A stretch of DNA of 64,000 nucleotides. Source: a virus. The DNA is taken from positions 2,314 to 66,313 of the IMG/VR virus record IMGVR_UViG_3300022750_000002; one strand, written 5' to 3'. How positions within the stretch are numbered: position 1 is the stretch's first letter; every line of letters starts with the position of its first letter. Below, piece after piece: positions 9,647 through 28,191 of the stretch. Made by a program: the position numbers and the translations under genes. Under the pieces are notes generated by a model. The model was not told the DNA's origin. It saw nothing but the letters and a program-made list of their open reading frames with translations, and did no database searches.

Positions 9647-10219
9647 ATGTTAAAATTCAAAAGCCTAGAGCTAAAGAAAAAAGGTAAAAAGCACACCATT
9701 AAAGTCGTTTACACTAAACAAGAAGTAAACAAGCAACAAGACATTTGGGATGCCGAATACTCAAAGAAAACAAATCAATATTTATCCCAGGAGTTAGATT
9801 GGGAGATAATCGGCCTCACGCCGCATTTACTTTGGACGAATGAGCTTATTTCAGCCGATTTAAGCCTAGATAAATCTTTAGACTATAAAAAGTACTTCGC
9901 TGAACATGCGTTCGCTGAGGACGAAAGATTTGATAACATCCACATTAAAAAGATCCTATTCTTTGGGAACGAAAAATTAGACTCTGTGAAGCTGTTTGGT
10001 TATAAAGAGACTACATTGGTTAGCCGAGGGTTTAAAAGTCCTTTAGAGACCCCTCAAATCACTTTAGATAGAGAGAAACAAGACTATGCGCTATTAACTA
10101 TTCTTGATGAACAGATTAATAATCTATTGGTTGAGTTAGAAAGATATTTAGAAGAGGGAGCGACCTTAACTAAAAATCAACAGATGGCATTATTTGAACA
10201 AGTAGAAGCGGAGGCATAA
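9647..10219 (+). CDS. Hypothetical protein
   Basis: 190-aa ORF with A-rich initiation region. Confidence 0.7.
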   Translation: MLKFKSLELKKKGKKHTIKVVYTKQEVNKQQDIWDAEYSKKTNQYLSQELDWEIIGLTPHLLWTNELISADLSLDKSLDYKKYFAEHAFAEDERFDNIHIKKILFFGNEKLDSVKLFGYKETTLVSRGFKSPLETPQITLDREKQDYALLTILDEQINNLLVELERYLEEGATLTKNQQMALFEQVEAEA

Positions 10220-10220
10220 C

Positions 10221-10481
10221 ATGGGAACTATAACAAAATCACTTATTAAAATAATGTTGGATTACGGGATGTATTCAAATATGGTGTTAGACCCAATTGC
10301 TTATCATGGCTACAAAGAAACAATACAAAATTTAGAAGATATTATTGAGGAAATAGACGTAGAGTTGCTTTTAAGACCTCAAAATTCCGATAGGCTATTA
10401 GAACATAGATTCTCTCTTCAAAATAGGTTGGATAAACTCAATAATACTAAAAATATAGAAATGCCAACTGTTAGAGAATAA
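10221..10481 (+). CDS. Hypothetical protein
   Basis: Tiling. Confidence 0.6.
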   Translation: MGTITKSLIKIMLDYGMYSNMVLDPIAYHGYKETIQNLEDIIEEIDVELLLRPQNSDRLLEHRFSLQNRLDKLNNTKNIEMPTVRE

Positions 10482-10507
10482 ACAGCAGAGATTGCTGAAC
10501 TTTTATG

Positions 10508-10539
10508 AAAGTCAATCTTTAATTAGGTTGGCTTTTTTT
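10508..10539 (+). terminator. Intrinsic terminator insulating the tRNA cassette from upstream transcription
   Basis: AAAGTCAATC/GGTTGGCTTT stem plus 7 T. Confidence 0.8.
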
Positions 10540-10562
10540 ATTTTTATTATAAAAACTATTTA

Positions 10563-10570
10563 TATATTTG
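10563..10570 (+). promoter_or_regulatory. Sigma-A -7 element of the tRNA cassette (leaderless start)
   Basis: TATATTTG with ATG 4 nt downstream, same spacing as the Cro promoter; -33 degenerate. Confidence 0.7.
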
Positions 10571-10574
10571 TGAC

Positions 10575-10655
10575 ATGAACAAACAACAACAATATTGCTT
10601 TTCTTTTAGTTGGTCGATACAGACCGATAGAGGATTGCTATATTTTGATGTTTAG
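10575..10655 (+). CDS. Attenuator leader peptide MNKQQQYCFSFSWSIQTDRGLLYFDV (not in ORF track)
   Basis: Codons 4-16 are all cognate to the 8 downstream tRNAs; 3' half forms the antiterminator strand. Confidence 0.85.
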   Translation: MNKQQQYCFSFSWSIQTDRGLLYFDV

Positions 10656-10693
10656 AAACGATTTAAGACACTAAAAACATATAGAAAGCCTCT
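10629..10693 (+). promoter_or_regulatory. Antiterminator hairpin of the tRNA attenuator
   Basis: AGAGG 10629-33/CCTCT 10689-93 and CTATAT 10638-43/ATATAG 10679-84; sequesters the terminator 5' arm. Confidence 0.7.
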
Positions 10694-10714
10694 GATTAGA
10701 TTCGGGGGCTTTTT
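10685..10714 (+). terminator. Attenuator terminator 8 nt upstream of the first tRNA
   Basis: AAAGCCTCTGA-ttagat-TCGGGGGCTTT followed by T-tract. Confidence 0.85.
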
Positions 10715-10722
10715 GCGTTTAT

Positions 10723-10795
10723 AGCCGTTCATGTACCAAGGTGGCGATAGGGTCTCCAAAACCCAATGAGTAAGGTTCGATTCCTTAAACGGTTG
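10723..10795 (+). tRNA. trnW: tRNA-Trp (CCA), atypical D-arm
   Basis: Acceptor AGCCGTT/AACGGTT, loop CTCCAAA, T-arm TAAGG-TTCGATT-CCTTA, G73. Confidence 0.8.
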
Positions 10796-10804
10796 CAATA
10801 AAAT

Positions 10805-10876
10805 GGAGTAGTAACTCAACGGTAGAGTGCCACACTGAAAATGTGGTGGTTAGTGGTTCAAATCCACTCTATTCCA
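10805..10876 (+). tRNA. trnF: tRNA-Phe (GAA)
   Basis: GGAGTAG/CTATTCC; CCACA-CTGAAAA-TGTGG; T-loop TTCAAAT. Confidence 0.92.
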
Positions 10877-10880
10877 CAAT

Positions 10881-10956
10881 GACCAAGTACCTAATGTTGG
10901 CAAAGGGGTTAGTCTGCAAAACTAATTTAACAACGGTTCAATTCCGTTCTTGGTCT
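10881..10956 (+). tRNA. trnC: tRNA-Cys (GCA)
   Basis: GACCAAG/CTTGGTC; TTAGT-CTGCAAA-ACTAA; U73 discriminator. Confidence 0.92.
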
Positions 10957-10959
10957 CAT

Positions 10960-11030
10960 TGCCTTATAGTACAGTGGTAGTACGTATGATTTTGGTTCAT
11001 AATATCTAAGTTCGATTCTTAGTAAGGCAT
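10960..11030 (+). tRNA. trnQ: tRNA-Gln (TTG)
   Basis: TGCCTTA/TAAGGCA; TATGA-TTTTGGT-TCATA. Confidence 0.9.
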
Positions 11031-11033
11031 CAT

Positions 11034-11121
11034 GGAAAGTTAAACACAGAGGTTGCTGTGTCGCTGTTTGCTAAACAGTTGGTTCATTAGATTGGATGGG
11101 TTTCGAATACTCAACTTTCCG
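11034..11121 (+). tRNA. trnS: tRNA-Ser (GCT)
   Basis: GGAAAGT/ACTTTCC; GCTGT-TTGCTAA-ACAGT; long variable arm; G73. Confidence 0.88.
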
Positions 11122-11128
11122 CAAAAAT

Positions 11129-11211
11129 GGTAGATACCGCTTATTGGTAAGCAGACAGTCTTGAAAACTGTTGGGGCGTGAAAACGCAGGGTTCGATTCC
11201 TATATCTACCG
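11129..11211 (+). tRNA. trnS: tRNA-Ser (TGA)
   Basis: GGTAGAT/ATCTACC; ACAGT-CTTGAAA-ACTGT; long variable arm; G73. Confidence 0.88.
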
Positions 11212-11216
11212 CACAT

Positions 11217-11300
11217 CCTTTAGCGCTAACGTTGGAGTGTTAGGACTGTCTGTAAAACAGTTGTCGAAAGACTTAGTAGGTTCTAATCCTACCTATAGGA
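11217..11300 (+). tRNA. trnY: tRNA-Tyr (GTA)
   Basis: CCTTTAG/CTATAGG (one mismatch); ACTGT-CTGTAAA-ACAGT; variable arm GTC-GAAA-GAC. Confidence 0.88.
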
Positions 11301-11305
11301 CATAA

Positions 11306-11379
11306 TTGCCCTTAGCTCAGTTGGTCAGAGTGACAGACTCATAATCTGTAGGCCGAAAGTTCGATCCTTTCAGGGCAAA
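11306..11379 (+). tRNA. tRNA with CAT anticodon, probably Ile2 (lysidine, reads AUA) rather than Met
   Basis: TTGCCCT/AGGGCAA; ACAGA-CTCATAA-TCTGT; C4-G69 and C5-G68 TilS determinants; ATA codon in the leader. Confidence 0.85.
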
Positions 11380-11393
11380 CTTATTTTTTATTA

Positions 11394-11479
11394 TATATTT
11401 GCAATTCAAAAGCCCTACATCCTAAGTAGGCCATAATAAGAACAGGAGTGAGGTAGTGGTTATCTTGCTCCTTTTTTTT
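11394..11479 (+). ncRNA. Candidate ~75-nt sRNA between a -7 element and a terminator
   Basis: TATATTTG 11394-11401; hairpin CCTAC/GTAGG; terminator GGAGTGAG/CTTGCTCC plus T-tract; no ORF. Confidence 0.4.
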
Positions 11480-11503
11480 CTAAAAAATAATTAAAAATAA
11501 CTC

Positions 11504-11533
11504 TTGCATCTTAAAAATAATTAAATATCTTTG
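11504..11533 (+). promoter_or_regulatory. Sigma-A promoter of the replication operon (leaderless Cro-like gene)
   Basis: TTG-N19-TATCTTTG with ATG 4 nt downstream; flanking TAAAAATAATTAAA-like repeats. Confidence 0.75.
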
Positions 11534-11537
11534 GGTT

Positions 11538-11732
11538 ATGAAACAAAGAAAACAAACAGAACTTTTAGCTAAAATCAAGGATTCGGGGCTAACGAAAGTT
11601 TTCATAGCAGAAAAGATAGGAATTAGCAATGCTCACCTATCAATGATGCTTAATGGAAATGCTACCTTCTCAGAAGAACACAGAAATAAAATCAACAGTT
11701 TAATTAACCAAGCGCTTAAAATAGCCATTTAG
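11538..11732 (+). CDS. XRE/Cro-like HTH regulator
   Basis: SGLTKVFIAEKIGISNAHLSMMLNG HTH. Confidence 0.85.
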   Translation: MKQRKQTELLAKIKDSGLTKVFIAEKIGISNAHLSMMLNGNATFSEEHRNKINSLINQALKIAI

Positions 11733-11771
11733 GTTATTTGCGCCTTTATTATTTTAAGAAAAATTAAAAAC

Positions 11772-12545
11772 ATGGCAGAAAGAAAGTCATTATCAAAGAA
11801 AATCAGATTTGAAGTATTTAAAAGAGATAGCTTCACTTGTCAATATTGCGGTTCAAAATCTCCTGATGTTGTTTTAAATGTAGACCACATAAATCCTGTT
11901 GCAAAAGGTGGTAAGAATGAAATGTTAAACCTTATAACAAGTTGTTTCTCGTGTAACAGTGGCAAATCAGACAGACAATTATCCGATAAAACTATTGTAG
12001 AGAAGCAAAGAGTTCAAATAGAAGAACTAAACCTACGTAGGCAACAATTAGAAATGTTATTGGAATGGAAAACAGGATTACAAGATATTAAATCAGATGA
12101 AGCGCAAAAAGTATCAGACTACATAGAAAAAATTACTGGTAAGGTAAGTTTAACTCCTGTAGGACTGAAAAATATGCAAAAACATATTAAAAAATTTGGT
12201 TTGCAAGAAATATTAGATGCTGTGGATATAGCTTTTGATAAATACTATAAAGAGGATGAAGAGGGAAGTGATGCTATTGCATTCAAAAAAGTTCCTGCTA
12301 TTGCTTTTATAAATACTCAACCAAAGCACATGAAAGATATTGCTTATGTAAAGGGTATTTTAAGAAATAGGATTTATTTAAATGACGCAGTTGCTAGCAA
12401 ATCTCTTTTAGAATTCCATAATGCAGGCGGTAATATGCAGTCTGTCATAGAGTACGCTAAAAAGGTGAGGAATTGGACTATTTTTATCGCAGAAGTTCAA
12501 GGGGCTACCGAAAAGATGTTAGAAGAATCTGAACTGGGATTTTAA
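11772..12545 (+). CDS. HNH endonuclease with helical C-terminal extension
   Basis: RFEVFKRDSFTCQYCG...VDHINP...N...CFSCNSGK. Confidence 0.88.
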   Translation: MAERKSLSKKIRFEVFKRDSFTCQYCGSKSPDVVLNVDHINPVAKGGKNEMLNLITSCFSCNSGKSDRQLSDKTIVEKQRVQIEELNLRRQQLEMLLEWKTGLQDIKSDEAQKVSDYIEKITGKVSLTPVGLKNMQKHIKKFGLQEILDAVDIAFDKYYKEDEEGSDAIAFKKVPAIAFINTQPKHMKDIAYVKGILRNRIYLNDAVASKSLLEFHNAGGNMQSVIEYAKKVRNWTIFIAEVQGATEKMLEESELGF

Positions 12546-27549: not shown

Positions 27550-28191
27550 ATGGAAGATATTAACTATTGCAAAGAGTTATTGCAATACAGGGCAACAAAA
27601 GCAGGTTATAATGGAAATTTAAGCCCGAATGATTTCAATAGAATATTTTCAAGTGCAGAAAGAAAGTATTTCAATTTTCTGTATAAGCAATACGGGATCA
27701 ATCAGGATAATGTAGATACACTTACAAGGTTCAAATCAGACCCTTTAGTGATTACGATTGATTCTAATGGTAAGTACACCAAAACAAGCGATTTACTTCA
27801 CATAGATAGCATTAGGCATACTGTTGGGGGTATTCAAGTGCCTATTACTAAAGTTAATGATGATAGGCTTGGTAGTTATTTATCATCTAGCTATGATGCT
27901 CCTGATGCTAATTACCCTATATATGTTGATTACAAAACTTACATACAGTTCTATCCGATTAATTTAGGCACAGCAACATTGGTTTATTTAAAAGATTTAA
28001 CTCCTTCCAAATGGGCTTATACTATATCGCAAGGTCGTGCCGTGTATGATGCTACAAATTCAGTTCAACCAAATTGGTCATCAGCAGACATTGATGAGTT
28101 GATTTATATGGCAGGCGTAGATATAGGATTAAATTTGCGAGATCAAACGGTTATGCAAGTAAATGATATTAAAGCTAAAGAAAATGTATAA
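27550..28191 (+). CDS. Tail ring/adaptor protein 1
   Basis: Position and size; FYP...LVYL ring-protein pattern. Confidence 0.65.
   Translation: MEDINYCKELLQYRATKAGYNGNLSPNDFNRIFSSAERKYFNFLYKQYGINQDNVDTLTRFKSDPLVITIDSNGKYTKTSDLLHIDSIRHTVGGIQVPITKVNDDRLGSYLSSSYDAPDANYPIYVDYKTYIQFYPINLGTATLVYLKDLTPSKWAYTISQGRAVYDATNSVQPNWSSADIDELIYMAGVDIGLNLRDQTVMQVNDIKAKENV

Follow-up and report, generated by a model that had tools for sequence, protein, structure and literature searches.

A codon-matched leader upstream of a phage tRNA array as a candidate multivalent transcription attenuator

The 64,000-nucleotide (nt) stretch of the IMG/VR virus record IMGVR_UViG_3300022750_000002 analyzed here (positions 2,314 to 66,313 of that record; referred to as the window and numbered from its first letter) carries an operon of eight tRNA genes that is probably placed under feedback control by its own products through a multivalent leader-peptide attenuator, i.e., through ribosome-mediated transcription attenuation. 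An attenuator at this site had been proposed in an earlier note made from the DNA letters alone, and this interpretation is now supported by the co-variation of leader and array across 12 modules and by modeling the folds of transcripts that are partly covered by a ribosome. The element displays every defining feature of an attenuator's anatomy that is testable in silico, yet it belongs to no existing sequence family.

The building blocks that had been listed for the cassette were all recovered (Table 1): an upstream terminator that isolates it, a promoter element placed 4 nt ahead of a leader open reading frame (ORF), a run of 13 consecutive codons that are readable by the array and call for all eight of its tRNAs, and a terminator that ends 8 nt ahead of tRNA-Trp. 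All eight tRNA specificities fall within 10 codons of the leader. Each of the 12 modules possesses a strong hairpin followed by a T-run a few nucleotides 5' of its first tRNA, and the TATATTTG promoter box with its 4-nt spacing is kept in nine of them. The TAnnTTTG box of Flavobacterium is located at -12 to -5 (PMC9723704); because of this location and the 4-nt spacer, the A of the ATG start codon falls onto the predicted +1 position, and the mRNA is predicted to be leaderless. A ribosome should consequently load once the 5' end of the transcript emerges. Since only 8 nt separate the terminator from tRNA-Trp, no promoter fits between them.

Taken by itself, the window is only suggestive. The chance figure of 3e-8 previously attached to the codon match was too optimistic, as a second-order Markov simulation, in which all eight kinds had to be found within 10 codons or fewer, gave 1.7e-6 per nucleotide. 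This corresponds to about 0.2 expected chance occurrences per window on both strands, and to about 3e-4 within the 200 nt that precede the array, a value that has to be read against the very many windows that were scanned. Another run of 13 qualifying codons is indeed present in the window; it covers only five kinds. It is the comparative sequence data that settle the question of the codon match.

These data come from 12 modules: that of the window, three metagenomic ones (L084, L125, and L109), and eight from cultured phages. Of 80 tRNA classes present in an array, 78 have their codon class among leader codons 3-18, and one of the two missing codon classes lies just outside this counting window; when the tRNA class is absent from the array, the codon class is found in 48 of 196 cases, mostly as a single codon. 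The co-variation between leader codon content and array anticodons that the earlier note had suggested as a check is thus strongly positive. Asn, Arg, and ATA codons occur together with the matching tRNAs. A leader-by-array matrix scored with the best 12-codon window has a diagonal sum of 128 vs. 67 +/- 11 after permutation, and none of 200,000 permutations reached 128. A null set of 102 small ORFs situated upstream of arrays at 42 loci places the leaders of L084, L125, and L109 at 5e-8 to 2e-6 and the next best ORF at 5e-4.

The three metagenomic modules were retrieved by different routes, L084 with a degenerate leader-peptide pattern, L125 with a Ser-TGA acceptor pattern, and L109 only via a Ser-GCT anticodon-arm pattern, which otherwise yielded mostly unrelated large arrays that served as the null set. 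The array of L084 contains no CAT tRNA, and its run, SQQYCFSFSWSQ, contains no ATA codon. Compared with the window, this run exhibits three synonymous third-position changes (TGC to TGT, TCT to TCG, and TCG to TCA), and a 2-nt indel in the distal leader shifts the reading frame while the nucleotides are still conserved, as would be expected if the distal leader acts as RNA. L125 possesses an array of only Phe, Ser-GCT, and Ser-TGA tRNAs, and its run SFSNFFSS consists of Phe and both Ser boxes plus one Asn. The array of L109 comprises four Ser, Trp, Cys, Gln-CTG, and three Arg tRNAs; Arg codons accompany the Arg tRNAs in its leader, and the Gln codon is CAG with Gln-CTG, as opposed to CAA with Gln-TTG in the window. 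The module of L084 sits between large ORFs that are unrelated to the window's neighbors, which implies that it moves as a unit. The leader ORF of the window itself exhibits zero to one changes across four other metagenomes (one Phe to Tyr substitution).

Among the cultured phages, Panino (Maribacter), Gundel_1 (Tenacibaculum), phi38:1, and Calle_1 (both Cellulophaga) contain two or three arrays each, and every one of these arrays has its own matched, and different, leader behind a near-identical promoter. The leaders of phi38:1 and Calle_1 are of Panino's three types (IMNIATDIRTKGVK, YNNFSWYSNCSFSSYN, LLHQEPLEQLRLP); those of phi38:1 (NC_021796.1) are found at L172:1484-1561, L169:1280-1369, and L169:2523-2612. 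In Gundel_1, tRNA-Asn is found in another array than elsewhere, and the Asn codons have relocated along with it. The leader can also be used to decode the array. An ATA codon is present among leader codons 3-18 in all four modules that carry a CAT or TAT tRNA (L168, L166, and L172 included) and in none of the eight others, and on this comparative basis the CAT tRNA of the window is probably a tRNA-Ile2 reading ATA. It contains the pairs C4-G69 and C5-G68, which we take to be determinants for TilS. In the same way, the text of a leader may reveal phage genes labeled tRNA-Met that are really ATA-reading tRNA-Ile2 genes.

The second line of evidence concerns the RNA. The transcript 10575-10716 folds with a minimum free energy (MFE) of -42.6 kcal/mol (z = -6.36 against 200 shuffles) into a helix between the codon run and the distal leader, followed by the terminator. 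The pairing of 10629-43 with 10679-93 that had been predicted earlier is real; it comprises 11 stacked pairs at -11.0 kcal/mol, and its extended form reaches -12.9 kcal/mol, a value attained by 102 of 5000 shuffles (2%). Complementarity between a segment of the distal leader and the 5' arm of the module's own terminator is found in 12 of 12 modules, their sequences differing, and the 12 shuffle p-values, combined by Fisher's method, yield about 1e-7. The antiterminator strand and both the 5' and the 3' arm of the terminator change together between the window, L084, and L125, the partners being AGAGG/CCUCU, AGGGG/CCUCU, and CAGGG/CCCUG, respectively. L084 and L125 also possess an apical hairpin of different sequence at the position of helix 1:2, and L084 a hairpin at the place of the window's inner hairpin (10638-10684) despite indels.

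Ribosome positions were modeled by folding nascent transcripts that lacked the 3' arm of the terminator, with about 29 nt around the A site blocked; this series covers 11 modules, with p38-B left out as its terminator was not located automatically. In the window, the predicted probability that the terminator 5' arm is sequestered is 0.68-0.75 with A-site codons 4-14, falls to 0.40 at codon 15 and to 0.09 at codons 16-17, and amounts to 0.24 with the ribosome at the stop codon and to 0.45 in its absence. Sequestration is thereby lost just where the matched run ends. In 11 of the 11 folded modules, the 5' arm is sequestered when the A site is on matched codons, and in most of them, including L084, L125, and most of those from isolates, sequestration drops about one to three codons past the run. 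The antiterminator of L109 overlaps the stop codon, and sequestration is lost there only near the end of the ORF. The masked folds hence yield the direction that the earlier note had predicted, in that a ribosome stalled on the run would favor the antiterminator, and one past the run or at the stop codon the terminator.

These observations lend themselves to a regulatory model. Transcription would start at, or adjoining, the AUG of the leaderless 26-codon ORF, whose codons 4-16 call for each downstream tRNA species once or more. We infer that this ORF is translated. When a charged cognate tRNA is scarce, any such codon would be decoded slowly, and the ribosome would wait on the run. Positions 10628-10643 would then remain accessible for pairing with the terminator's 5' arm (10679-10694), and with the antiterminator formed, RNA polymerase would read through and the tRNAs would be made. 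With fast decoding, the ribosome would reach the distal leader and the stop codon and cover the antiterminator strand; the 14-bp terminator could then form, and transcription should stop 8 nt ahead of tRNA-Trp. If no ribosome is present, the run would pair with the distal leader (helix 1:2), and in the window termination would be favored as well. As the regulated product would be the very molecule that is sensed, this closed loop would confer autonomous control of tRNA supply during infection.

Several observations weigh against this model. The antiterminator of the window is modest, as 26% of shuffles attain the -7.9 kcal/mol of its core duplex. The most stable fold of the full-length RNA is always the one with the terminator, so that the switch must be kinetic, as it is in trp. 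The leader holds only one to four codons per tRNA, and the sensitivity for any single input may thus be low. Because the modules are related to one another, the large-sample p-values given above suggest more independent events than there were; the count of separate gains, losses, or moves is roughly six to eight, all of them in the predicted direction. Among viral contigs, the complete genome with the most similar terminase (62% identity) lacks tRNAs altogether, which marks the tRNA module as accessory. Finally, the sequencing runs that match the stretch include no RNA run (one labeled RNA-Seq looks like DNA) and provide DNA contigs only.

The simplest reading of the element is feedback control of tRNA supply, and since the leaders of a single cultured relative jointly cover nearly all amino acids, general homeostasis fits at least as well as a defense trigger. 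The same sensor might, however, serve as an inducible counter-defense that switches on replacement tRNAs when host anticodon nucleases, other tRNA-depleting defenses, or the host shut-off exerted by the phage itself remove the matching host tRNAs. We regard this reading, which refines the attenuator model rather than opposing it, as possible and rather doubtful. Phage tRNAs reportedly overcome tRNA-targeting defenses (PMC11555353), the OR-gate layout would respond to the loss of any single species, and the module moves between phage contexts that are unrelated, as counter-defense genes often do. The breadth of coverage by the two or three leaders per cultured relative speaks against it, as it fits general homeostasis better than a response limited to the handful of tRNAs that nucleases are known to attack. 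Equally tentative is the notion that the tRNA blocks are modular OR-gate repair kits, silent while host tRNAs suffice and on within minutes after one matching tRNA has been cleaved or lost. Alternatively, the leader might sense decoding speed while the output is Rho access, RNase cleavage, or the processing of tRNA precursors. The persistence of the terminator in the full-length MFE structures would fit such a mechanism, and in several modules from isolates the terminator arm is already sequestered without a ribosome, so that other layers may contribute. Nevertheless, we consider a non-terminator output improbable: 12 of 12 modules combine a strong hairpin and T-run with a complementary strand in the distal leader, ribosome blocking of this strand begins in most modules at the end of the matched run, and Rho-type polarity would cut tRNA output upon stalling, a positive loop of no obvious use.

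Two further readings deny the leader any role in sensing. A small untranslated or unrelated ORF might have come to lie by coincidence between a promoter and a leaky terminator, for which the location-corrected chance in the window and its second 13-codon run could be invoked. Yet 11 further modules obey the same rule, among them one unrelated in sequence and several leaders within single genomes; moreover, the substitutions in the run are synonymous, and the leader is nearly invariant across metagenomes. We hold such a coincidence to be extremely unlikely. The ORF could instead encode a small functional peptide whose composition is unrelated to decoding, and two Panino leaders do carry an annotation as hypothetical proteins. 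This is hardly credible either, given that the peptides belonging to the arrays of one phage are wholly different yet array-matched, and that the nucleotides of the distal part are conserved between the window and L084 although they are read in different frames.

Leader-peptide attenuation is a textbook mechanism, known from trpL, hisL, pheL, and leuL and, in multivalent form, from the ilvGMEDA (Ile/Leu/Val) and thr (Thr/Ile) operons of enterobacteria. The phage element shares with these systems a short leader, translated in enterobacteria, with a cluster of regulatory codons, the predicted response to the availability of charged tRNAs, and the likewise predicted selection of antiterminator or intrinsic terminator by ribosome position, and the 1:2 helix of the window resembles that of trp. 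It differs in that tRNAs and not biosynthetic enzymes would be regulated, in the number of inputs (each leader holds 3 to about 10 codon classes, as a rule with one to four codons each, instead of long runs of one to three amino acids), and in its predicted leaderless mRNA and its location on a mobile, phage-borne module. The pheM leader of Escherichia coli pheST, an attenuator of phenylalanyl-tRNA synthetase, likewise places a component of the translation apparatus under the control of a leader peptide in which the cognate codon is frequent; Phe is its only input, the gene it controls encodes a protein, and it is cellular and not viral. T-box riboswitches also couple the charging state of tRNAs to translation-supply genes through a terminator/antiterminator choice, whereas they bind uncharged tRNA directly and do not need translation. 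To our knowledge, T-boxes are rare or absent in Bacteroidota, and an Rfam E-value scan of 10000-12000 found neither a specifier loop nor a T-box match; besides tRNAs, it returned only a sub-threshold hit to Phe_leader. Membership in this family (RF01859) was rejected (23.9 bits vs. a 55-bit threshold, E = 0.42, mostly a match to the terminator), and the likeness is architectural only.

In a Flavobacterium, leader-peptide attenuation has been reported upstream of amino-acid operons (PMC9723704). Phage tRNA arrays viewed as a supplement to codon usage or as counter-defense (e.g., PMC11555353) represent the same cargo, namely clustered tRNA genes that replace or supplement host tRNAs, and in the searchable texts such arrays are treated as expressed cargo, and no codon-matched leader or attenuator is described. 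We found no publication in the searchable literature that describes a codon-matched leader attenuator for tRNA genes, and the papers on Panino and on the phi38:1 transcriptome (PMC5335546) mention neither leaders nor attenuation. The window would hence present a known mechanism with a new target, since the targets in the searchable literature are amino-acid and synthetase genes, and neither tRNA genes nor phages. This design bears on the question why phages carry tRNAs, and on their predicted deployment on demand instead of constitutively. The leader also offers a sequence-only aid for decoding the identity of odd phage tRNAs, such as CAT as an ATA reader, and would represent a compact natural multi-input sensor of decoding speed. 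It is present in cultured Cellulophaga, Tenacibaculum, and Maribacter phages, for one of which infection transcriptomes already exist.

Table 1. Features of the tRNA cassette and of related modules. Positions without a prefix refer to the window.
Feature	Position	Strand	Basis and remarks
Intrinsic terminator closing the upstream gene block	10507..10543	+	12-pair stem 10507-10536, then T-run; immediately behind the stop codon of ORF 10221-10481
Bacteroidota sigma-A type -7 box TATATTTG	10563..10570	+	Sequence match; TAnnTTTG type
Leader ORF, 26 codons	10575..10655	+	ORF list; such an ORF in all 12 modules
Sensor run (predicted), leader codons 4-16	10584..10622	+	All array-readable; all 8 tRNA kinds
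Helix 1:2, predicted anti-antiterminator	10581..10653	+	Run pairs with distal leader; apical hairpin at about 10609-10628; MFE and centroid
Predicted antiterminator 5' strand, leader codons 18-23	10628..10643	+	Pairs with 10679-10694
Inner hairpin enclosed by the antiterminator helix	10638..10684	+	Nascent-transcript folds
Intrinsic terminator ahead of the first tRNA	10682..10715	+	14-bp stem; T-run 10710-10714; conserved in L084
tRNA-Trp (CCA)	10723..10796	+	ARAGORN
tRNA-Phe (GAA)	10805..10877	+	ARAGORN; Rfam RF00005, 71.8 bits
tRNA-Cys (GCA)	10881..10957	+	ARAGORN; Rfam 49.2 bits
tRNA-Gln (TTG)	10960..11031	+	ARAGORN; Rfam 66.1 bits
tRNA-Ser (GCT), long variable arm	11034..11122	+	ARAGORN, relaxed threshold; homologous in L084
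tRNA-Ser (TGA), long variable arm	11129..11212	+	ARAGORN, relaxed threshold; Rfam tRNA clan, 37 bits
tRNA-Tyr (GTA), long variable arm	11217..11300	+	Read by eye; one T-T mismatch in acceptor stem
tRNA with anticodon CAT, probably tRNA-Ile2 reading ATA	11306..11380	+	ARAGORN; Rfam 68.5 bits
L084 leader	L084:4519-4590	-	Same promoter spacing, leader, terminator, and array as the window, minus the CAT tRNA
L125 leader	L125:1583-1645	-	1.9-kb contig binned with a Bacteroidota metagenome-assembled genome
L109 leader	L109:1013-1108		Run SRSSQRSCWSARRWS; leader sequence unrelated to the window's
Panino module			Leader QRLHQELEQP; array Pro, Glu, Gln, His, Leu, Leu, Arg
Panino module			Leader AATGIAIIGRTKDK; array Ala, Lys, Ile, Gly, Asp, Thr, Val, CAT
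Panino module			Leader NTFSWFNYSNCSDCNC; array Tyr, Ser, Ser, Asn, Trp, Phe, Cys
Gundel_1 module			Leader YSYSCFSSWF; array Tyr-like tRNA, Trp, Phe, Ser, Cys, Ser
Gundel_1 second module			Leader NNLHIQQNNLP; array Pro, Gln, CAT, Asn, Leu

The count of eight tRNAs given in the earlier note holds for seven of them by ARAGORN, five at the default threshold and two more (Ser-GCT and Ser-TGA) at a relaxed one; Tyr-GTA was read by eye and has comparative support. This support consists of its homology to the tRNA-Tyr of L084, which ARAGORN does call, and of two compensatory double changes in the anticodon stem (11247/11259 and 11249/11257) in the sequencing runs X2 and X3 from other metagenomes. The Ser-TGA/Tyr stretch 11128-11352 differs at 14 positions in run X2, these compensatory pairs included. 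A contig of run X3 that aligns to window positions 10532-10589 has the promoter and the first five leader codons in common with it and continues with Leu, His, Gln, Gln, Pro, Ile, Leu, and Phe codons. It resembles the Pro/Gln/His/Leu-type leaders of the isolates, and a further array, preceded by a copy of the promoter, may exist in a close relative.

The virus record to which the window belongs is complete, measures 73 kb, and has direct terminal repeats; its source is a leaf-litter metagenome, and near-identical modules are present in soil, canine, and wastewater data sets. Relatives of the window's terminase, about 26% identical, are found only among phages of Flavobacteriia (Cellulophaga, Flavobacterium, and Maribacter). 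The phage possesses a single tRNA array, and no tRNA is encoded elsewhere in the whole genome. In the contig L002, the set of neighboring genes is 98% identical to that of the window, and the sequences are unrelated upstream of about 11480; no tRNA is found there in the roughly 200 nt that remain before the contig end. By comparison with L002 and L084, the window segment 10540-11480 appears as mosaic cargo. A flanking 190-aa protein has no relatives in the viral contigs, and none of the 80 loci related to the downstream HNH protein contains the array.

Further searches for related modules added none to the set. The exact tRNA-Phe pattern gave zero matches in viral contigs, an nhmmer profile of three leaders retrieved no additional homologues from all collected loci, and the pattern matches in the genome contigs L126-L129 were discarded as chance since no tRNAs are present there. 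When the L125 leader was compared with 400 Bacteroidota genomes in a BLAST-type search, only chance-level matches were obtained, so that, judged by sequence, it is no generally occurring host element in these genomes. Cellulophaga phage phi19:3 carries a single tRNA-Cys without such a leader.

Some features of the cultured phages deserve mention in their own right. In Gundel_1 (L168 2730-3236), a gene for an HNH endonuclease separates the leader terminator of the second module from tRNA-Pro, and the leader of this module has kept a His codon, yet neither ARAGORN nor the record annotation places a tRNA-His in that array; the layout may be a recent rearrangement. In Panino (L166 2758-3090; record 27557-27889), an annotated transfer-messenger RNA overlaps tRNA-Asp and an antisense hypothetical coding sequence, and this annotation looks doubtful. 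Across the 12 modules, the first base of the codons that are read roughly determines how the tRNAs are divided among sub-arrays. Codons starting with U predominate in one type (Phe, Ser-UCN, Tyr, Cys, and Trp) and those starting with C in another (Pro, Gln, His, Leu-CUN, and Arg-CGN), and a third type reads A- and G-starting codons (Ile, Thr, Lys, Arg-AGR, Val, Ala, Asp, and Gly). This sorting may mirror the classes of position-37 modifications.

Downstream of the array, a second TATATTTG box is present at 11393-11400 of the window; a strong terminator (11444-11472 plus a T-run) follows about 45 nt further on, and no ORF starts at the +1 position. The segment 11393-11480 may thus represent a small RNA of about 75 nt, situated between the tRNA array and a gene for a helix-turn-helix regulator, and L002 has a promoter-like box and a terminator of different sequence at the corresponding position. 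The pattern of box, 4 nt, and ATG is not enriched in the window (three matches vs. two expected). One instance precedes the helix-turn-helix regulator gene itself (11538-11732; 64 aa; PHROG category transcriptional regulator), where TATCTTTG is followed by 4 nt and an ATG (11526-11540), so that this gene is probably leaderless as well.

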